A DNA stretch of 58,426 bases, counting the filler, from Sphacelaria rigidula (taxonomy: Eukaryota), in NCBI GenBank assembly GCA_964200075.2. It is 6 parts of 6 records of this genome, joined end to end, with 100 filler letters (N's around TTAATTAATTAA, not from the genome) between each part and the next. Parts side by side here need not be neighbours in the genome. Positions count along the whole stretch, not along the records: positions 1 to 9,655 come from CAXNAA020008021.1; 5 more parts are not named here. The stretch is one strand, 5' to 3'. Under the pieces are notes generated by a model. It saw only the letters and a list, made by a program, of their open reading frames with translations. It made no database searches and was not told where the DNA came from. Shown here piece after piece: positions 769 to 58,426 of the stretch. The position numbers were made by a program, and so were the translations under genes. Every line of letters begins with the position of its first letter. Position 1 is the stretch's first letter.

Positions 769-1186
769 GGTGCGCCCGGTTTCTGTCATTTTGATCTACT
801 ATACATGATTTCTTTTCTCACCTCAAAACAGCCACTTTTCTGAGGGGGGCTATCGCGGCATCAGTCTCCACCCGGATTTTTTTTAGTGTGCGTGTTTTAT
901 GCTGTTGAATCTGCCAGAAATGCTCTCGGTAGTTCTAGTGATTCCTCTTTTTTCAAACCTGCGTTTGGTTGGGCTCGTTTTTTTGTTGTTGCAAATTTAC
1001 TCTTATTCCTGCCGGCAGAAAGGAAGGATGAGACCCTAGTGATTATTAGGTCTTGTCAAACCCGGACGCGTTCATTTCTCCTGGACTGGGAGGCCTTGGT
1101 TACAGTAGGCCAATCTTGATGGGAAATGAAGCCAAGAAGCCTAATTTCCTTGCCTCCGGCGGCCTCTCCCGCGGGCCCCCCTCGCC

Positions 1187-1260
1187 AGTCTGGGGGGGGG
1201 GGGGCGTTCTCATGTGTTGCTTGCCCTACTCGTCTGACCATTGACCACGAGTCTGGGGGG
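1187..1260 (-). mobile_element. 5'-truncated LINE 3' end with poly(C) tail and 11-bp target-site duplication
   Basis: Minus strand GTGGTCAATGGTCAGACGAGTAGGGCAAGCAACACATGAGAACG followed by a C run; homologous to the LINE end at 56594-56640 and 27887-27930. AGTCTGGGGGG is repeated at 1187-1197 and 1250-1260. Confidence 0.8.
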
Positions 1261-1735
1261 AGGGGGGCGTTTGGGACTGGAACAGCGAGCGAACTCGGTC
1301 GCGCTCGCACTTGGGGTTCGCCGATATTTATCGAATTTAATCGATATCGAACGCTGAAAAGTTCGATTTGGTCCCGAAGCGTTGAGTGGTTCGATATCCA
1401 ACATAAACTCGTACGCTTCATTAACGGAAGGTCCCGGGTTGGAATTCCGGCCCCTACCAAAAGCGACGAAAAAAATTATGCGAGGACAAAAAGATCATGA
1501 AAATGGTGAAGGAAAAGACAATTCATGGAAAACTTTGTAGCAGAGTGATGAACAGATTCACGGGAAAATGGTCTGCGGAGAGTGTTGGCTTCGGGTTATA
1601 GTTAAAATATATGTGAAAAAAAGTGTACATCCTCATCCCTAGCCGGCGAGTATTGTACAAGCTTTTTCGTGTTAAAAAAACGTACGGAGAGGCCCAAAAA
1701 GTGTGTGTGCGTGTGTGTGGGGTGATGTGGGTACC

Positions 1736-1778
1736 ATCACGTACAAGGGGGGGGCGTACTCATTATCACGTACAAGGG
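1736..1778 (-). mobile_element. Minimal (about 15 bp) LINE 3'-end insertion with 14-bp target-site duplication
   Basis: ATCACGTACAAGGG is repeated at 1736-1749 and 1765-1778 around GGGGGCGTACTCATT, the reverse complement of the LINE terminus AATGAGTACGCCCCC. Confidence 0.7.
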
Positions 1779-2046
1779 AAAACTTAAACTCCTACGAATG
1801 TACGTCGAGGGTTCACATTGACGACACCATGAGATAACTCGTAAGGTTCATGAACGCCGGGTCCCGGATTCGAACCCCGCTTCCTACTGAAAAGCGACGA
1901 AAAAGTCAAGTGGGGAAAAAGAAATGTGAAAATGGTGGGGGAAAAGACAACTGGTGAATGACTTCCACCACACATGAGGGGCACACTCACACAAGGGCCC
2001 GTCGACGAATCATCTTTTCACACAACAGTGGAGGGTTGTGTTCTGC

Positions 2047-2585
2047 AGGGTATGACATTCTTTACGGGACTTACAGAAATATCGAGTGCCGCTATGAAAG
2101 TCTTACAGAAAGTACAAAACGGTCGGGTACCGGTTTGAAAGTCTCACAGAAATTACAGAACTTGTCGGATGCGGTATGGGAGGCTTACAGAAAAACCGTA
2201 CCGGCAATCGGATATTTCTCTTTGAGCATACCCGCGCGCCGGGTACAGGCAAACATTTTGTACCGAACTCACTGAACTGTCGGGTAAGGGTATGTGAGGC
2301 TTGCAGACCTCACAGAAACTGTCGGGTAGGGTACGGAGGTTGCACAGAAAACCGTACCCGCACCCGGGCATCTTATCCAGAGCATACCCGTGCTCCCCGG
2401 TAAGGGTACGGGAGGGTTACAGAACTCACGAAACTATCGGGTAAGAGTATGAGAGTCTTACAGAGATGACAGAACCGTCGCATACCGGTATGAGAGTCTT
2501 ACAGAAGTCACAGAACTGTCGGGCACGGTAAATACCCGGGAAAATACCTCGGGTGGGTAAACAGAAGACCGTACCCTACAAAACA
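2047..2585. repeat. Minisatellite-containing interspersed repeat (about 36-bp unit ACAGAACTGTCGGGTAAGGGTATG), copy 1
   Basis: Many degenerate units of TACAGAA...CACAGAACTGTCGGGTA. The same succession of blocks, including GTACCGGCAATCG...GAGCATACCCGCGC and CGGTAAATACCCGGGAAAATAC, recurs at 3213-3903. Confidence 0.75.
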
Positions 2586-3212
2586 CAACCATGGTATTAT
2601 CATCAACCCTGTGGAACTACCTCACTACAGTGGCGAACTACAGATCACAGTTCACGGAAACTATGAACGGCTTCACGGGGTTAATAGAGAAAGACTACAC
2701 GAACACTCGTAGTAGTACATTTGCACGGGATCGTCAATATCTGCTGTCTTCACGTACACTTCCAGCGAGTATATGGACGAGCATTCACGGCTGCCTGTTC
2801 TCTGGAAGCCCTTGGGCACGGCAAAATCGTCGACGGTCTCGACGACTTCCAGCGGCAGCTCGTACTCTTTGCTGCGCATGTCGATAGCGGCCTGGGGTTT
2901 GATGACCACGACACAACCATCAACGTCGATGACGTGCGTCTTGCTACTTGATCCCCTGGTGACGCAAATGAACCGCCCCCGCTCGAGCCACCACTCGAGT
3001 CTGGGGGTGATCCATCCTGACGATCTGTAGTGCTACTCATGTTTCGTGTTTCCACTCTGCAGTACCTCGTATCCCGTTAAATTATTAAATTGAGAATTTT
3101 CCAACATTGAATTTTTGTTGGTGTGCAGTTCTCTGAATGAAGGAATTGGGTGGATTGATCGATGGGAGGTACATGTTCAGGCTTATCCGTACCTCCCCAA
3201 GGTTTATACCTT

Positions 3213-3903
3213 TGCTCATACCTGCAATCGGGTATATGTACAACGGCATACCCTAACCCGGGTAAGGGTATGGGAGGCCTGAAGAGCTCACAGAACCATC
3301 GGGTGCAGGTGCTGGATGAAAGTCTTGAATAAATTACAGAACTTGTTATATCATGACCACCACTACTGCAGCACCGCGTTGGGTACGGTATGAAATAATT
3401 AGAAACGGTACCGGCAATCGAATCTTCCTTCAAGAGCATACCCGCGCTCCGGGTATGGGTAAACATTATGTACAGAACTCACAGAACTGTCGGGTAAGGG
3501 TATGGGAGGGTTACAAGGCAGATCGAGTAGGGTATGTTCAATTGCGGGGTATTTTGAAAGTTGTACTTCAAGTACACAAATTGGGGTAGGGTGTTGGGGT
3601 CTCTTTCCGTTTTTTGGGGGGGGGGGTACGACTCCTGAAACACCCGACCCCAATTTGGGTACTTCAAGTACGATGTTCAAAATACCCCGCAATTGAGTAT
3701 ACTCTAGGGTGTACCTGTGCCCCCAGGTAACGGCACGGGAGGCTTAGAGTAATCACAGAACTATCGGGCAAGGGTATGAAAGTCTCAGAGATTACAGAAC
3801 TGTCGGGTATCTTCAAGAGTTTTACGAATGTAACAGAACTGTCGGGTACGGTAAATACCCGGGAAAATACGCCGGGTATACAGAAAACCGTACCCCGCCG
3901 GGT
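3213..3903. repeat. Minisatellite-containing interspersed repeat, copy 2, interrupted by a MITE
   Basis: Same unit and block order as 2047-2585, with an insertion at 3528-3706. Confidence 0.75.
3528..3706. mobile_element. MITE with about 68-bp terminal inverted repeats and TA flanks (Tc1/mariner-type target)
   Basis: TAGGGTATGTTCAATTGCGGGGTATTTTGAA... pairs with ...TTCAAAATACCCCGCAATTGAGTATACTCTA. TA lies at both ends, inside a unit of the host repeat. Confidence 0.8.
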
Positions 3904-3916
3904 AGCCGCGCCCCAT

Positions 3917-4212
3917 TGGTGTAATGGTCCGTCTGTCGCCATTAGGGTGGGGAGAACGAGGGTTCAATACCCGATGCGTTTTTTTTTTCCTTCGTAATAT
4001 CTGATTTCCATCGTGGAAAGCGTGAGAACGTGAGTAAAAAAATAGTCGACTGATTTTGTTTGACGTGAGTTGACGCGGTGCGGGATTGCTGACTCAACCC
4101 CCGACATCAAGATGCAAGGCGTGTACTGTACTGGGCGAGAGATGAGATGATCCCTTGAGACCACGGACTCGTCTCGAGGAAGGGGGAGGGTCCAAAGTGC
4201 GACAAAAAAAAA
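3917..4212 (+). mobile_element. tRNA-derived SINE, family B (copy 1)
   Basis: A box TGGTGTAATGG and B box GGTTCAATACCC. Colinear with 46903-47199. Ends AAAGTGCGAC plus an A run. Confidence 0.8.
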
Positions 4213-7142
4213 CAGAACGCGGCGTTGGAGCAGTCTATTTGAATGTTCGAACCAGTACACATACTATGAAGTGAGTCGCGGACGACTTGGTACGTTGTCT
4301 GCGAGATGGCCCGCAGTGACTGATTCGAATTTTGATCTCCTCGTATATACTTCACATGCAACTGGCAGCACACTGCGCACACAACAGTACAGTAGTCGTC
4401 AGTTTCTCTCTTCCTGGATCCCAGATCTGCAATCTTTGAGTACTGATTGCTGACAGTGCAGTATCGTCAGAGCACCAAGCAAACTATCTGGTGTGGTTCA
4501 CATACAGTGTATACCCTGGTTTTGTCTCGACACAATGTTAGAGGAAGCTATAGCTGTCGAGTGAAGCAAAAATTCGACGAGGACTGTGCGTAGACCCGGT
4601 GTACCACAACACATTTCGGCGGCACCGTGTGTTGCGCTCGCTCGCGCACAAGGACATCGACTGACCTAGTACACTCAGATTTCTAGACCGCTGGAAATAT
4701 GACAAAAAAAGATTCAGCGCTACATCGCCTCCCTGCATTACCTCACCTGGAGTTGCGGCTGATCACGGAAGTGCAAAGCACCATGATCCCTCCAAATACT
4801 TGGCAGATTTTCGCGGGTTTCCTAGCGGGCACCCACTTTGACCAAATCACGCTTCACGAGTCAAGTCAATCTGCAGTTGGAAGCAACCCCTGGATTCCGT
4901 GCGGCTACCGCATCCGTCTTATAGCAACGGGTCTGAGAGCATATATTGAACCGAATGTAATAGATAACAAAATAGTTGTGGTCATTTTCCAATTAATAAT
5001 TATTTCGAGGACAACGGCGGTGACGTGTATTGGGAGGGTAAACCTGGATGATTGAAAAAAAGGAGACTCCGCGACCGACTCCGCAATACTGCATGCATTG
5101 GCTTTACCATTCTCGTTTGCCTCCCCACTTCTGGCACATGTTTTGTTTTCGTATTTTCGAGTTTCCATTTGTAATTTAAACTAAATGCCGATCTCCTCGT
5201 TGCCTGGAACTAAAGGTCATACTCCTTTTTGGGAGGTGGTATCATACGGGCCGGTGTGATACACCCGGACAGGCTGTAGTAGTAGCAGCAACAGCAGCGG
5301 GCTGATTGAAACTGGGAGACAGAGAATAGAGATAATGTCGAACTACAATCGCCTGAGCTATTCCAAACGGGCATCAGTGGATGAACTTTGCAGCTTCGTG
5401 GGTTCTACAAGGGCGATGAGCATTGCACTCCTCGAGCGCTTCGATTGGAACATGGTGGTGAGGGGGAATTTAGAATTTAGCCGCAAGTACACACTAGGTT
5501 TTATGTGCAGCTGTTCAATGTGCTGCCATCGGGACCTGCTCAACAGTGCTACTGTGCAGTCGTACACTGCATTCATACGGCAGTTCGTTGTTATGGGCGA
5601 GTCACTGTGTGATGTGCTGTACTGTACATGTTCGCACCCATCCCCTTGATTTTGACACGATGCAACAGACAGCACAAGCCCATGCACGCTCCACGAGGTT
5701 TGAAAATTGCAGCCCACACTAACTTCTGCATTTGCTGTACTGTTGTCCATACCGTTGTTCTTCCGCGTGTGTTTTGATATAGAACATGTGTTAGTCATAG
5801 GTTGCTCAATAATCAGTGATCATGTTTCCAGCTGTTTTATGTTTGTGCGTGCAGCAGATGCTCGGGCATCGCGAGTGGTGCATGCGTGCCGCGCGCAAGC
5901 GTTGGGTACTCGAAAATTGTTTTTGTATGCGGACACTTGCATTTCAGAACAAAACTTTGGTGCTCTGTGACTTCGCTAGCTAATCTTCGGGAAATTATAA
6001 TATACCGAACACGACGAAAGATAGCCTCAAAAGCAGTACTCGTATTCGTATAACGCGTTGGCAAGGCGGCACGGTAGATTCCCAGGCAGATAGTACGGAC
6101 AGTACACGTACAGTACAGCAAGAGTCTTAGCATTGAACAAGACGCAGGATAAGAGCGTTTGCGGCTAAAATAAGTCCATCTGTCCACAGAATTTATCAAG
6201 AAAAAAAATCATCTGAGTACTCGTACAGCACTTGTAGATAGTATTGTTGAAGAGTAAGCTCGCTGTCCACGGTCCCGTGTGTACCGGAACCAACGTCTCC
6301 CACACACCGTGCCTCAATTTGAATATTGAATATTTTGTTTCTCTCGCGAGAGTGGTGGCAAGAACGACGGTCCAAACGGCTGTTCCTTGCTCCATCTCTG
6401 TGCACCTTTAGTCCAGACAGTATTGTAGTACTCTTCGCAATGTTTCATCAGTTTGCAAACGTTTGCTCTACTCCTAGCGTGGCTAGTATCGTGACTTCTA
6501 TCGCTAGATGGTGTGTTGGATGACCATCCTTCGTCTTACCGGTTAGGCTTTAGATGATGGATCCGTTGAATATTATGCTTCAGAGTTTTCCGTTTGAGTA
6601 TATCGTATCACGTATCAAAACGAACTCCTCCTTATATACCTACAAAAATACTCAGGAAGCTGCGGATGCTTTTTTCTCCGGGGAAGTGGACGTTGACGCT
6701 CTCATGCGAGCCTCCACGAGTCGCGCTGCTGCCTCGGCGCCCCCGGTGGACTTTGCCACTCTGGATGCTTGGTAAGGAGGCGGGATCGATATGCTATCGT
6801 TAACTATTGCACATGTTGGCTACGAGTACAGTCGCTTTCACCACTTGGTAGGCGTGGAACTTTTCGACTTGGTTTTGGTGTTGACACCGAAATCCGAATC
6901 TCCAATGGGGAGCGTGCTCGTTGCATGCGTAGGACGCGTTTTTGTCTCGATCGACGCCGCAGGCGCCGATTTGAGGTCTCGCAACGCACACTTTCCATCA
7001 GGAATACTTTGCACCGTCCTAGTTCTCGGTACGCCTTCGTTGGGATGAGGATTAGGGTTAGGCTTAGAGTTTTTCGAGATCATGACTTCCCGAGAACGTT
7101 CCACGCCAATCAAGTCGTAAACCAACCTCTCTGAGGATATAA

Positions 7143-9655: not shown

Positions 9656-9755
9656 NNNNNNNNNNNNNNNNNNNNNNNNNNNNNNNNNNNNNNNNNNNNT
9701 TAATTAATTAANNNNNNNNNNNNNNNNNNNNNNNNNNNNNNNNNNNNNNNNNNNN
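9656..9755. other. Artificial contig spacer (N44-TTAATTAATTAA-N44)
   Basis: 100-bp spacer carrying stop codons in all six frames; five identical copies in the window. Confidence 0.97.
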
Positions 9756-12708: not shown

Positions 12709-13580
12709 TAGCCTGGTCCGACGAAACCCGGCGTGCTCTGTCTCGGCTTCGAGGGGGCGGACTCCCTTCGGGGTTGTCCGTCGGTTGACGATGACGCTGT
12801 AAAACACGCCACTCATCGCGTAAGCTAGGCAACCGGGTTACCGACTTTTTGGCGCGCTCGCATGTTTGTTGCGGTAACGATGATGGTGGTCAAGCTAGAT
12901 CATACTGTGCGGGGTGGGAGAACCTTGATTTCGCGCAAACGAGATTATCGTACCACGAAGTGCTCGATTGGTGAGACACCCATGATGCAGGGTATAAGCC
13001 ATGGCTGTCTCTGGAAATGGCGATACCAGAAAATGAAGCAACTCGTTGGAGGCTGTCATCCACATGCGAGATAATCAGTACATCAGTACGCTTCGGGCCG
13101 AGCAGTCTTCGCAGGATGCAGCCCACCCTTCATGCGACTCGTCGATCACACCACGACGCTTCGTGCATGGCGATTGATTGCCAACCTGTGTGTGTTGTGT
13201 TGTCGTCCCTTCTATTCCGGACGCCAGTCTACAACGTTTGGTGTATGTGGGCGCACCAGCCGGGGTCACACAGGAGGAAGGTCAACACAGAGCTTTTTTT
13301 TTCTATTTGTTGTTGGTACGTCACCTTCCTTTTGCGGTGCTTGAGTTTATTTTTTATCGTGAGAGGGGTACAGCAGTCCCTTTTCCCTCGTTGACCGTTG
13401 GGTCGAATTTTGTGTACCCATGACATAGTCCCTCTCCACTGTTGGGCATGGTGTGAGAAAAAATTCCAGATCACTCCGAGCTTTGAACCCACGACCCATC
13501 CGTCTGAAGGATTCGAGGTTACCAACTGAGCCACCGGGGCGCCCGACAGCCTGGTCCGTCGAAAACCCGGCGTACTCACT
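12709..13580 (+). repeat. Old interspersed repeat with recurring motif AGCCTGGTCCnnCGAAAnCCCGGCGT, interrupted by a SINE
   Basis: 12995-13187 plus 13547-13580 is homologous to 28200-28480 (minus). The motif also occurs at 12710-12733 and 35958-35983. Confidence 0.6.
13189..13546 (-). mobile_element. tRNA-derived SINE, family A (copy 2, full length)
   Basis: Minus-strand head GCCCCGGTGGCTCAGTTGGTAAC (A box) and GGGTTCAAAGCTC (B box). Colinear with 24-358. Flanked by CAACCTG and CAGCCTG, a probable target-site duplication. Confidence 0.85.
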
Positions 13581-19410: not shown

Positions 19411-19510
19411 NNNNNNNNNNNNNNNNNNNNNNNNNNNNNNNNNNNNNNNNNNNNTTAATTAATTAANNNNNNNNNNNNNNNNNNNNNNNNNNNNNNNNNN
19501 NNNNNNNNNN
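19411..19510. other. Artificial contig spacer
   Basis: N-TTAATTAATTAA-N, 100 bp. Confidence 0.97.
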
Positions 19511-19550
19511 ACAAAGGCAAGCAACAAATGAGTCCCCCCCCCCCCCCCCC
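19511..19550 (+). mobile_element. LINE 3' end with C17 tail at contig start
   Basis: AAGGCAAGCAACAAATGAGT followed by 17 C; same terminus as 27887-27910 and 56594-56615 (minus). Confidence 0.75.
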
Positions 19551-21056: not shown

Positions 21057-21147
21057 GGGGTGTACTTATATGTTGCTTGCGTCATTTGATCAGTGACCAC
21101 ACATTACTCGCGAGATGGAGCACCGTTCCTACCCCTAATAGAGACAC
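21057..21147 (-). mobile_element. Old 5'-truncated LINE 3' end in an intron
   Basis: GGAGCACCGTTCCTACCCCTAATAGAGACAC matches 56655-56686. The minus strand ends GCAAGCAACATATAAGTACACCCC. Confidence 0.75.
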
Positions 21148-27860: not shown

Positions 27861-28198
27861 GGCGGCGTGGGGGGGGGGGGGGGGGGTCGTACTCATTTGT
27901 TGCTTGCCGTAGTCGTTCGACCATTGACCAAGCATCCGTTTCGAAACGGAGCACCGTTCCTCTCCTAATAGAAACACCTCCAACATTTAGGTGCTCATGA
28001 CATTTCTTCTATACATGACACAAAAACCGTTCACGTATCTTAAACTCGCCCTGTTCCGCCGTCCGTGGCCACTGTCTATCTCCTATAATAGTACAGCCAT
28101 CGTTTTCACCCTACTATCCAATGCATCAAACGATTTCGTGCCACCTTCGTTCACGTCCCGCATTTCCTCCTCTAGGCGGCGGGGGGGGGGGGGGGGGG
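27861..28198 (-). mobile_element. About 290-bp 5'-truncated LINE 3' end with poly(C) tail and target-site duplication
   Basis: 27887-28174 is colinear with 56594-56878. GGCGGCG(T/G) plus a G run flanks both sides (27861-27886 and 28175-28198). Confidence 0.88.
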
Positions 28199-28199
28199 C

Positions 28200-28480
28200 T
28201 GGAAGGGGGGAACCCATGATTCTGCATGGCGTGGCCATGACACCATTCACCTCGCATCCCTACAAAGCTGAGACGGAGCACGCCCGGTTTTCGCCGGACA
28301 GGGATCGGAATCACCAAGCGCGAAGCACCGTAATGTGTTTGGCGAGTCGCATGGAGGGGCAGCTCATCCTGCTGAGATTGTTCGGTCCGAAGCGCACAGA
28401 ATATCTGGCCTATGGAGTACAGACTACGATGAATTGCTTCATTTTCTGGTATCGCTACTTCAAGAGACAGCCACGGGTTA
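28200..28480 (-). repeat. Old interspersed repeat homologous to 12995-13580
   Basis: Shares TGGCTGTCTCT...GCGATACCAGAAAATGAAGCAA...CTTCGG.CCGA.CA.TCT...CATGCGACTCG and the CGAAAACC.GGCGTGCTC motif. Confidence 0.7.
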
Positions 28481-28790
28481 CACAGGGGGAAAAGTGGAGA
28501 TGACACGGGGGTTCTAATGAGGCTACGATAGAAAAGAGATACAGTACTGGATTGCATGTTATAGAGGAGGCGTCAAACATGAAAATTAAGGAAAGCAGCC
28601 CCATCGGGTTGTGGTGAACACGCGTTCGACGCATCGACCAGCCATACTTGCTATTAGTGTGCGATCAATAAAAAGCTTGACGCGTGTGGTACGCATGTGT
28701 GATGGTAGGTCACCAGAGTTTGGTACTCATGTACTGAAAGGGGCAGGCTAGGAAAAGATTTTCTCTCTCCTTCCGTCGCGGTACCTTCGA

Positions 28791-28791
28791 C

Positions 28792-28830
<39 letters not shown>

Positions 28831-29164: not shown

Positions 29165-29264
29165 NNNNNNNNNNNNNNNNNNNNNNNNNNNNNNNNNNNN
29201 NNNNNNNNTTAATTAATTAANNNNNNNNNNNNNNNNNNNNNNNNNNNNNNNNNNNNNNNNNNNN
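29165..29264. other. Artificial contig spacer
   Basis: N-TTAATTAATTAA-N, 100 bp. Confidence 0.97.
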
Positions 29265-30468
29265 TGGGCAATCAGCCCCAAGAAATCGTGGATTTGGTGA
29301 TTAGTAGTCGTGATGATTCGTCCTAACCGTGGAAGCTTTGCTCAAAGCATGTGTGGGAGTTGAACCCACTAAGCCCCCCTGTCAACTTGGCGCAGTGCAC
29401 GCACGACCCCACTCTTATGAGCTTCGACCCTGGTTGGACAGATCTACCTCGTCCAAGGAGCGTAAGTCGGCCAGTACCTCGTCGAAGTCACATTCCCAGA
29501 AAGTGCATTTCAATCTGATTGGTGTGTGTGTGTCGGGGGGGGAAGGGGGGGGAGGGGGCGGGGTATCGCCACGATCAATCACAGAATGGGTTGATTTCGG
29601 AATGCTACTTTTTTCGTCCCGACCGATAAGAAAAAGCCTGTGCATACTGGTACTCGGCTAGACAAACATTCACACGTGTTGTACAGCAAAAAAAATGATC
29701 GGGGGAAAGACGACAAAAATTGGCTTTCCGCTTCCCCGCGGGTCGAAATTGTTTATCACCCACTTCTGCATTCCGCTTTTGTTTTTTCTGGAAAACACCC
29801 CCTATTGCGTGTTCTAGTGTAGTATGCCCACGGCAAACTGCGCCCAGTCCTCTCCTGCGGTCGCTGGCGCCCCGCTCTCGTGCACCTTCTGTGCCCCCAC
29901 ATTCTGTTGAGGTGACTATCACTCAGGTGTTTTTCAATTGCTTTTTTTTCTTCCCCCCCTGGGGCTTCGGAATTTGACGGCTTCGCGTCCACACTTACAG
30001 CGGCCGATCGCCGATATTGCCGGTTGAAATAGATTTGCTCCCTTTTTTCCGGGCAGCGCCGAACCGTACCTCAGTCGCCCAGCGCAATGCTTTCTCTGGA
30101 ATAATTCGGATTTTTGCGTCGTTAGGTAGTAGCGCAGTTCGAATATGCTCGCTTCACTTCCTGCGTTTGCTGCTTCAGTACCGCGCTCTCCTCTGAGCAC
30201 CGTACGTCAGTAGCCGTACCCTTGTAGGTTTGATCTTCTAGCTTTATCGCCACCTTTTTCCCGCGCACACACTTCCTCACCATGTACAGCTATCGATTGT
30301 CCACCGATTGGACTGGCGTCTTGATTTCCCGCCGCCCTACGACATTCGTGTAGGGATGCGAGGTCGATGGTCATATGAATACGGCATGCAAGATCATGAG
30401 TACATTCTACGACATTCATGATGACTACGGTATTTCGACCGGCCGGCTTCAATTCTGCTGAGCGCACA

Positions 30469-38918: not shown

Positions 38919-39018
38919 NNNNNNNNNNNNNNNNNNNNNNNNNNNNNNNNNNNNNNNNNNNNTTAATTAATTAANNNNNNNNNNNNNNNNNNNNNNNNNN
39001 NNNNNNNNNNNNNNNNNN
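38919..39018. other. Artificial contig spacer
   Basis: N-TTAATTAATTAA-N, 100 bp. Confidence 0.97.
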
Positions 39019-45437: not shown

Positions 45438-45658
45438 GACACTTTCTACGATAGCCCCCCCCCAAAACAGTGCATGGTTTTGGGAGGCAAAATGTTCACG
45501 TAAATCGAAATGGAAAAAGCCAAGCACAACGAGNNNNNNNNNNCGCCAATATGAGGCGCTTCATGCAGCCTGAACCCGAACATCAGGCGCTGTATGGCAT
45601 TTTTTTACGTGACAGTTTTAGCTGGTTTTTTGGGGAGGGGGCTATCGTAGAAAGTGTC
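45438..45658. mobile_element. MITE with TIR GACACTTTCTACGATAGCCCCC
   Basis: About 22-bp perfect inverted termini; contains a 10-N gap. Confidence 0.8.
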
Positions 45659-47270: not shown

Positions 47271-47517
47271 ACTGCTACCGAGATAGCCCCCCCCGCGAAC
47301 CGGCCAAAAAAGTGCAGGGAGGCGAGGATCATAAATGCCGTTAGAGCTGGTTTCGTGCTGCACGACGCGACACATTTGGGCGTTACAGCTGATTTCAGAC
47401 TGTTACACGCCTCTCATGTGGGCGAAATTGCTGCAAACGAGCACAATCATGGGACCGCAGCCGGTTTGTCGGACGGTCTACGGTGCACTTTCGTGGGGGG
47501 GCTATCTCGGCATTAGT
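47271..47517. mobile_element. MITE with TIR core CCGAGATAGCCCCCC, related to 45438-45658
   Basis: ACTGCTACCGAGATAGCCCCCC pairs with GGGGGGCTATCTCGGCATTAGT. A lone related end, GGGGGCTATCGCGGCATCAGT, lies at 844-865. Confidence 0.75.
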
Positions 47518-48310: not shown

Positions 48311-48672
48311 TATATTTGTTCAACTATAAAGAAAAATAAGCATAGTGTTCTCTACGTTTCGCGATGCAAAGAAAAAACGTTGGGTGTTGGACATGCTTTG
48401 GAGTAGAGCACGCTGCCCAAGGGGGTTGTCGTCCACAGAAAGGGTGAACTGTGCCTATTGTGTACGAGATCAAAGTCGGGGGCGTTATGAGAAAACACAA
48501 GAGAATGACGTTCAATTGCAGCCCGACAGCTACATAATTAACAAGGAAATATCCGCAGCCATCTACCCGGCAGAGCGAGGCCGCGGCACCGTGGCGGTCT
48601 CATGGTACAACTGGCACCAGCGTAATGCTACGATAGGGGTGAGGGGGGTGTACTCATGATCATGCGTGCCAT

Positions 48673-48772
48673 NNNNNNNNNNNNNNNNNNNNNNNNNNNN
48701 NNNNNNNNNNNNNNNNTTAATTAATTAANNNNNNNNNNNNNNNNNNNNNNNNNNNNNNNNNNNNNNNNNNNN
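48673..48772. other. Artificial contig spacer
   Basis: N-TTAATTAATTAA-N, 100 bp. Confidence 0.97.
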
Positions 48773-51074: not shown

Positions 51075-51125
51075 GGATTCTCGTTGTATTACCTTGGCTA
51101 TGTCGGAACAGTTTTTTATCTCAAG

Positions 51126-51179
<54 letters not shown>
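51075..51179 (+). repeat. (AAC)n microsatellite, probably the tail of a diverged retroposon end
   Basis: GCTATGTCGGAACAGTTTTTTATCTCAAGACAACAAC resembles GCAGATATCGGAACGGTTTTTAATGTGAAGACAACAAC of 28791-28860 (minus). Confidence 0.65.
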
Positions 51180-56593: not shown

Positions 56594-58426
56594 GCGTACT
56601 CATTTGTTGTTTGCCTCGATTGTTTCACCAGGGACCACGCATCCCTTTCAAGACGGAGCGCCGTTCCTACTCCTAATAGAGACACCTCCAACATTCCGGG
56701 GCTCATTACGTTTCTTCCATACATTACACAAAAGCCTCTTACATATCTTATCTCGGTCCTGTTCCTCCGTCTCTGGCCACCATGTATCTCCTAGTATAGC
56801 CATCGGTTTCTCCCTACTGTCTAATGCATCAAATGATTTCTTGCTACCTTCGTTCACGTCCCGCATTTCACCCTCTGGCACGTCCCGTTCTTCCTTGTAC
56901 AGTTCACATCTTGCCACTACATGATTTCTGTTCTCTATTCCCCTGCCACAGAGGCAGTTCTGTCAACCTACCTCCTCCTCCACACGACCACTGGTATGTA
57001 TCGTATTTCTGGCAGGTCCAGGTCTCCCATCCGAAATCGCAGTTTCGTATTTTACGCAGCGTCCATTGGGCCATGCAAATATGATTTCATCCCTATCCTT
57101 ATTGGGCCATGCAAATAAGATTTCATCCCTATCCTCTCTCTCAACCGCCCGTATATCTCCAGGTGTTCTTCCACGCCTACTTTACGTCTGAGCGCCCCTT
57201 TTCTCCTTATTTCTATCATGTCTCTTACTTTTGCCTTGTACCCCGTGTCTTCATCTATGGACAGTATTTCGTCTTGGTTTCCTCCTATATCCTTCCATAT
57301 TTTCTCGACACCTCTATCCCACCTTATTCCAGCATTCCCTACCGTACTTTTCTTCCATACAGCCCTATCACCTATAGCTGGCAATCTCTTTCTCTGCATG
57401 TTCTTTACGCTATATTGCCCTCGCAATTTCCTCATATCTCTTTGTTTTGAGTGATTACATTCCCAACTCTGCTGTCAGTGGCAATCTCTTTCTCTGCATG
57501 TTCTTTACGCTATATTGCCATCGCAATTTCTTCATGTCTCTGTTTTAAGTGGATACATACCCAACTCTGCTCTCAAAACTGTATTACTCGTCGTTTTCGA
57601 GAATCCGAGTATCTTCTTAGCTGCTACCATCTGTACTGTTTCCAACCTCTCCACCAACTTCGCGTTCCCCTCCCATACTTCTCCTGCATATTCCAGCTTT
57701 GGTGCGATCACGTTCAGTAGGATACATCTCTAAATCCTAGTGTCTAGGCGCGGGTGTCTGAGGATCACGTCCAACCTGCCTATCTGTGCCTTATCCTTTT
57801 CTATTACTGTTGATGTGTGCATCCTAACAGCAGTTTCTTGAGATCTCTACGCCAAGGTATGTATACTGGTCTACGATAGACCTTCTCTCTTCTCCCCACT
57901 TCCATTTCGACTGTACAGGATTTTTCTTATCTTCGTTACAAACGAGTACCGCGCATTTGTTGACGTTCGCTGTCATTCTCCATTTCCTGGTGTTTTCTAG
58001 CGCCTTGTCTATCTGTGTCTGTAATCCTTTCGCTGTTCCTGAAATCCCCACAAAATCATTCGCGAACATCAATCCTGATACCATATCTTCACCCACCTTG
58101 ATCCCTTGCTTTGCTGCTTCTATTGCTATTATCAAGTTATCAATTAAAACCTAGAACAAAGTGGGTGATAAAGTACATCCTTGTGCAACTCCTTGTAAGA
58201 TATCGAAATGGTTCGATATTCCCCGTCTAGAATCATGGCACTTTTGGCACATTCTGTCATCTTCTTCACCCTTCTCCACATCTTTCCTTTAATCCCAGCT
58301 TCCCACATCTTTTTCCACAACCCATTTCTCCATACTGTGTCATGAGCCTTTCGCACGTCCAGAAAGAAACAGTACGTTGTCCGCCTGGTGTCTTTCCTAC
58401 CCTGAATAATCTTACTTAGTGTGTTC
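56594..58426 (-). mobile_element. Non-LTR retrotransposon (LINE): RT domain and C-terminus, inactivated, cut by the window end
   Basis: FFLDVRKAHDTVWRNGLW, GVAQGCTLSPTLF, LMFANDFV (catalytic DD altered), NVNKC, YTYLGV and a Cys/His C-terminal region. Stops, frameshifts and internal tandem duplications. Ends GCAAACAACAAATGAGTACG. Confidence 0.93.

Follow-up and report, generated by a model that had tools for sequence, protein, structure and literature searches.

Copies of a LINE 3' end in the window

The window, by which is meant the whole stretch of 58,426 nucleotides of Sphacelaria rigidula DNA that was analysed, is made up of six pieces, each ~9.65 kb long, with N44-TTAATTAATTAA-N44 linkers between them (9656-9755, 19411-19510, 29165-29264, 38919-39018 and 48673-48772), and the piece edges artificially cut the features that touch them, such as the LINE copies at 19515 and 48650. 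The DNA is eukaryotic and non-coding-looking, with a GC content of 44-58%. Contigs of the public sequencing runs that match piece 3, among whose labels is 'algae metagenome', sum to 500-940 million letters, and their alignment to the piece indicates that much of it is a very high-copy repeat. Two of the pieces contain a (GTT)n microsatellite, at 28795-28830 and 51100-51179, and the flanks of the two resemble each other.

Nine copies of one LINE 3' end are distributed across the window. The six termini reported by the first-pass annotation are all real: five were recovered by BLAST with the long copy as query and by an nhmmer profile (1205-1249(-), 19515-19533(+), 21062-21147(-), 27888-28173(-) and 56594-58426(-)), and the 10-nt insert was identified by direct reading. 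Three copies were added to these (28211-28484(-), 30350-30404(+) and 48650-48672(-)), the second of which was located via an external copy, L119. The 21-mer terminus matched four times in the window at up to 3 mismatches, compared with no matches in 100 shuffles. Since 28211-28484 was among the sequences from which the nhmmer profile was built, its nhmmer match arises by construction; its terminus aligns with that of 30350-30404, a pairwise likeness that is readable in the alignments. The copies are listed below, with their 3' flanks on the sense strand.

1205-1249, minus: copy 1, a 45-nt 5'-truncated 3' end, ...GGCAAGCAACACATGAGAACG (21-mer, BLAST, nhmmer); 3' flank C13
1755-1764, minus: copy 2 (mini copy), a 10-nt insert with extreme 5' truncation, sense AATGAGTACG (read directly); 3' flank C8
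19515-19533, plus: copy 3, cut by a piece edge, end ...ATGAGT (21-mer, BLAST); 3' flank C17
19534-19550, plus: the C17 run directly 3' of copy 3 (run scan)
21062-21147, minus: copy 4, old, 77% identity (BLAST, nhmmer), flanks G-rich on both sides but decayed, GTGGTGGGGT / GCGGGGGAGGG; 3' flank ACCCCACCAC, decayed
about 27887-28174, minus: copy 5, a ~287-nt 5'-truncated 3' end whose terminal 21-mer equals the consensus; 3' flank of the copy (27888) A, then C18
28211-28484, minus: copy of a related subfamily, 'B', high-copy by contig depth (nhmmer), with G6 at 28205-28210; 3' flank C6, then TTCCAG and C18
30350-30404 within 30337-30419, plus: copy 6, no C run (nhmmer); 3' flank ATT, then a run-less duplication
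48650-48672 within 48636-48672, minus: copy 7, cut by a piece edge, sense ...CATGATCATGAGTACA; 3' flank A, then C6TCAC4
56594-58426, minus: copy 8 (long copy), a 1.8-kb 3' part with the RT frame decayed by frameshifts and stops, end GAGTACG; 3' flank CTCTCGTG, no run

In the subfamily 'B' copy, the 3' end (...ATGCAGAATCATGGGTT) shows homology to the LINE terminus, and C6 comes after it. Across the copies the terminus is variable, the forms being GAGT, GAGTACG, GAGTACGA and GAGTACA, and a fixed tail is lacking. When the final ~90 nt from six copies were folded as a consensus, 14 pairs were predicted with 0 compensatory changes, and we propose no structure on this basis. Within the decayed frame of the long copy, a stretch of 99 nt is duplicated in tandem at 90% identity (57379-57477 / 57479-57575).

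Reading frame, domains and clade of the element

A search with the long copy's decayed RT led to full-length proteins, 1360 and 1328 aa long and 66-70% identical, whose domains are an APE endonuclease and an RT, with a CxCx8Hx4C (CCHC) motif at the C-terminus. In P0007 and P0008, PF03372 (E 3e-12 and 8e-15) is followed by PF00078 (E 1e-30 and 2e-32), and L119 carries one intact 1382-aa frame (999-5147). The layout that characterises RTE-X, a single frame with an N-terminal APE endonuclease and then RT, is thus found in P0007, P0008 and L119. In L119 and in window copy 5, where it occupies 27893-27895, the TGA stop codon lies inside the 21-mer terminus, 5 nt before the element end. RTE-type LINEs typically have a 3' UTR of very few nucleotides that ends in a simple repeat, and here the element ends 5 nt past the TGA, with a C run following.

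The 90%-identity cluster of P0008 includes proteins named from Ectocarpus, one of which, P0021, ends ...VVNGQMTTASNK, the same as the frame in the window; this membership and the common C-terminus identify the family as a brown-alga LINE. In a PDB search the RT gave similar scores to L1 ORF2p (7e-21) and R2 (9e-20), and neither this search nor the Atlas returned a clade. The element is probably a brown-alga non-LTR retrotransposon of the RTE-X type.

Association of the terminus with C/G runs

A C run of at least 6 begins within 1 nt of the terminus in 6/9 window copies (binomial P ~6e-17, against a background of 55 runs of C>=6 counted on both window strands). One of the remaining copies has a decayed C-rich flank and two have no run, which places 6-7 of the 9 copies, a small sample, in the target repeat. 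Past the runs, the flanks of seven copies have nothing in common, so the element ends at the run. The association is also visible from the side of the runs: the window has four G/C runs that reach 12 or more, and every one of them stands at a LINE junction. G/C runs that reach 8 or more number 20, where 1.4 would be expected and 200 first-order Markov simulations gave 6 at most. The run lengths given at first pass were borne out (G13 at 1192-1204, G8 at 1747-1754, C17 at 19534-19550 and G18 at 27869-27886), as was its caveat that the long copy passes from GAGTACG into CTCTC with no run.

Two further observations concern runs elsewhere in the window. Three more C7-C9 runs follow a common ...CGAKATAG sense motif (45443-45463, 47275-47294 and 47495-47515), two of them facing each other 200 nt apart, and the copies of this motif may represent another family ending at C runs. 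A 180-nt self-inverted repeat, 73% identical (3528-3706), has a T6-G11 tract at its centre (3616-3626).

Target-site duplications

Flanking repeats could be read around four copies.

1187-1204: left duplication of copy 1, AGTCT + G13, adjoining the LINE 3' end
1250-1267: right duplication of copy 1, AGTCT + G6AG6, the 13-nt run again with one mismatch; the following CGTT also matches
1736-1754: left duplication of the mini copy, ATCACGTACAAGGG + 5 extra G at 1750-1754
1765-1778: right duplication of the mini copy, ATCACGTACAAGGG, G3 only
27861-27886: left duplication of copy 5, GGCGGC(GT) + G18
28175-28198: right duplication of copy 5, GGCGGC + G18
30337-30349 and 30407-30419: 13-nt duplication of copy 6, CTACGACATTCRT, 12/13 identical, no run

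The flank repeats are target-site duplications, because their unique prefixes (AGTCT; GGCGGC) match; that of copy 5 requires a 2-nt (GT) gap within low-complexity GGC sequence. They measure 13-26 nt overall and 18-26 bp for the run-bearing copies 1 and 5. In these two, the only informative copies with a run and two readable flanks, the run has the same length left and right of the insert (13 vs 13 and 18 vs 18), so the whole run was already in the target and was duplicated within it. As in LINEs specific to simple repeats, the target repeat accordingly stands in the duplication on both sides, in copies 1 and 5 and also in a contig with a tandem run-copy-run order. The 10-nt copy at 1755-1764 differs, with C8 on its 3' side vs C3 in its 5' duplication, that is, 5 extra C; the junction run therefore exceeds the duplication run in 1/3 copies whose duplications contain C. 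The C tract is not obligatory, since the copy at 30350-30404 has a clean 13-nt duplication without any run. An automated search for run-containing duplications recovered the 1755 copy, and its other three matches were at chance level or lay across piece edges.

These results separate the parts of the first-pass annotation, which had proposed that the family targets G/C homopolymers, ends in its own poly(C) tail and thereby spreads G/C runs through the genome. Targeting is supported, as the duplications begin with a C run on the sense strand. The 11-bp duplication AGTCTGGGGGG described around copy 1 exists, although its length was underestimated: it spans 18 nt, or 22 nt when CGTT is counted. 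A distinct poly(C) tail finds no support, given the equal run lengths in two copies and the run-less copies (2/9 in the window, 1/3 outside it), and the equal runs inside the duplications of copies 1 and 5 speak against a long, separately made tail. The spread of G/C runs by the family stands, by way of target duplication rather than of a tail. The original interpretation was thus half right, and its association between the LINE and G/C runs is confirmed.

Copies and runs outside the window

Two of the three external copies end at a run. L050, which ends GAGTACG + C8, came from a 16-mer metagenome scan whose pattern was too short (118 loci, of which 1 was the element and 117 were chance matches). 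L119, the single locus of a scan of genome contigs with protein alignment, ends GAGTACG + C13 and contains, in addition, an old 3' fragment that is inverted and run-less. A search for further copies in the MAG of L119 matched only the same contig, and no target-site duplication around the full-length copy was found within that contig, which probably ends inside the element. An 18-mer scan of viral contigs gave one match, which was due to chance. Both L119, on a 5259-nt contig of an 'uncultured bacterium' MAG, and the protein P0003, labelled Hyphomicrobiales at NCBI, are copies of the brown-alga LINE and look like eukaryotic contamination of bacterial bins.

Contigs of four public runs were also aligned to piece 3, and the following figures come from the best-supported of more than 7,400 alignment rows. 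Among the rows listed, contigs with loose ends just before G18 numbered at least 593 in X1, at least 501 in X3 and at least 29 in X6, and X4 had no such row. The consensus of the loose ends in X1, X3 and X6 continues for 11-12 more G past G18, after which agreement falls to 0.39-0.43; many runs are thus ~29 or longer by contig consensus at piece 3. Some contigs carry run, 45-nt copy and run in tandem, and G15, G18 or an impure G-rich tract stands ahead of other copies. The association of LINE and run therefore holds genome-wide in the contigs. Among the rows listed, neither an empty allele nor a run-length polymorphism was found. Runs of ~29 or more are not explained by target duplication alone, without slippage, and run lengths beyond 18 argue for slippage or some addition of C; they form the main point against a pure target model.

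Tail or target

It is unlikely, though worth serious weight, that the element has a true (C)n tail, in which case its RNA would end in a templated or slippage-extended C repeat, pairing of this repeat would select G-rich nicks, and the junction run would be mostly element-derived. The curators of the Ectocarpus elements give '(C)n 3'' as a terminus (PMC12477816), and short-repeat tails such as (CA)n, (CAA)n and (TTG)n are known in RTE and RTEX (PMC3747384, Table 3). The 5 extra C at the copy 1755-1764, the hundreds of contigs with runs beyond 18 and the runs on both young, intact-looking external copies (C8, C13) point in the same direction. Such a tail would nevertheless be expected on every copy and would make the junction run longer than the duplicated one, whereas run-less copies exist, one of them with an intact duplication, and run lengths are equal in 2/3 copies whose duplications contain C. 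A stop codon 5 nt from the end of a variable terminus with no fixed tail also speaks against it.

Homopolymer G tracts are break-prone, and the LINE might simply have used fragile G runs (stalled forks, G-quadruplex-like breaks) without endonuclease specificity. This passive association is improbable: the regular 13-26 nt duplications and the junction exactly at the run edge fit staggered enzymatic nicks, and the APE endonuclease domain is kept in intact frames. Homopolymers are also error-prone in sequencing, and poly-G or poly-C errors at repeat edges could imitate the pattern in reads or assemblies. An artefact of this kind is barely credible for runs that are internal, lying between matching unique duplication halves, and that recur in contigs of three studies' runs and in two unrelated metagenome/MAG contigs.

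The best explanation, which we hold to be reasonably probable, is that an RTE-X-type LINE prefers G/C homopolymers and that the whole run is duplicated with the target, with no long separate poly(C) tail. Integration would then take place preferentially at G/C homopolymers. In copies 1 and 5 the base past the run on the far side lies outside the run, which would put the first-strand nick directly 3' of the G run, at its exact end. The 3'-OH of the G run would prime reverse transcription at the RNA end ...UGAGUACG, possibly aided if the RNA carried a few C, transcribed from the run next to its source copy, with which the G run could pair. A second nick 13-26 nt away, past the run, would enclose the whole run in the target-site duplication, the arrangement observed in copies 1 and 5. 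Each insertion would turn one run into two, and the doubled runs would provide new targets, producing tandem or nested copies and most long G/C runs.

A read-through model exists for target-specific LINEs. Given the C8 vs C3 of the mini copy, a few C at the RNA's 3' terminus are possible, and RNA with such read-through C would explain both the 5 extra C and a heritable link to runs.

Comparison with known LINEs

The trait has a precedent in Ectocarpus. In supplementary file 1 of a 2025 study of the Ectocarpus transposon landscape (PMC12477816), RTEX-1a_Ec32 is described as 'single EN-RT ORF; (C)n 3'' with a 'C-rich' TSD, RTEX-2_Ec32 is annotated '(C)n termini/TSD', and the non-autonomous RTEX-N1/N2 have a C-rich TSD and 'can be present in tandem'. 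For the remaining autonomous LINEs of Ectocarpus that file gives (CAA)n (RTE) or (CA)n (CRE), and it gives (C)n for RTE-X only. In the available text of the paper, 'C-rich' occurs 0 times in the main text, and neither a mechanism nor a tail-versus-target analysis appears. As far as this source extends, the trait is already catalogued for Ectocarpus RTE-X families, as a curation note only, and what is new is another element and the question of its mechanism. Additionally, a young RTEX-1 has been reported in a kelp, in an account that, in its available part, comes without tail data (PMC4421812).

The present element resembles RTEX-1_Ec32 and RTEX-2_Ec32, as these are annotated, in its single EN-RT frame, in the C runs at its 3' end and TSD, and in its tandem copies; it may belong to these families, being likened to them by annotation and protein cluster rather than by consensus alignment. 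According to the same annotation, Ectocarpus RTE-X elements have abundant non-autonomous partners with a common 3' end. Unlike them, the present element resides in another, much larger genome (run contigs of ~500-940 million letters).

A tRNA-headed SINE occurs in two copies, 85% identical, both on the minus strand (23-357 and 13189-13540). It ends 3' in a repeat rich in CA, ...ACAACACAACACACACAGG, as would suit another LINE as its partner; the Ectocarpus RTE and CRE are annotated with (CAA)n and (CA)n.

Microsatellite-specific LINEs belong to other clades, namely R1, Tx1 and R4. The APE-type examples listed in PMC3812793 are Waldo (ACAY), Mino (AC), Kibi (TC), Koshi (TTC) and Dong (TAA), and no mononucleotide G/C target is found among the repeat-targeting LINEs listed there. 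As these elements are described, the present one resembles them in its insertion into a simple repeat, in the repeat adjoining its 3' end and in the lack of poly(A). It differs from them, with their di- to tetranucleotide targets, in that its preference is not absolute, 2/9 window copies lying outside runs.

Mammalian L1 nicks at TTTT/AA and has a poly(A) tail, the nick falling at the homopolymer 3' end on the primer strand. The geometry of the present element is the same, with a nick at the homopolymer 3' end and a duplication whose sense strand begins with the complementary homopolymer; unlike L1, it uses G/C rather than T/A, adds no long tail, and has a single frame and a 5-nt 3' UTR. The L1 consensus is quoted as 5'-TTAAAA in PMC3812793.

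Short tandem-repeat tails occur in RTE and RTEX LINEs: in Table 3 of PMC3747384, the tails of green-alga RTEX include (CA)n, (CAA)n and (CCAT)n, and plant RTE has (TTG)n. Like RTE/RTEX LINEs with such tails, the element combines a 3' UTR of very few nucleotides with a simple repeat at its 3' end. It differs from them in its single-base unit, which is target-derived in the informative copies.

Implications

The matches listed by the literature search included no paper on a poly-C-tail retrotransposon and, by title or abstract, no G/C-run-targeting LINE. It is possible, and we propose it only tentatively, that the lineage of this element is the first among LINEs for which homing to mononucleotide G/C tracts is shown, with the endonuclease or the priming reading the G run; such a lineage would make its own targets, and the long G/C homopolymers and tandem LINE/SINE arrays of brown-alga genomes would stem mainly from it. 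The element offers a natural case for weighing primer-template pairing against the endonuclease in LINE target choice. A self-copying preference for G/C-homopolymer targets would explain the ~14x excess of G/C runs here, and it would also explain the tandem pile-up of LINEs and their dependants.
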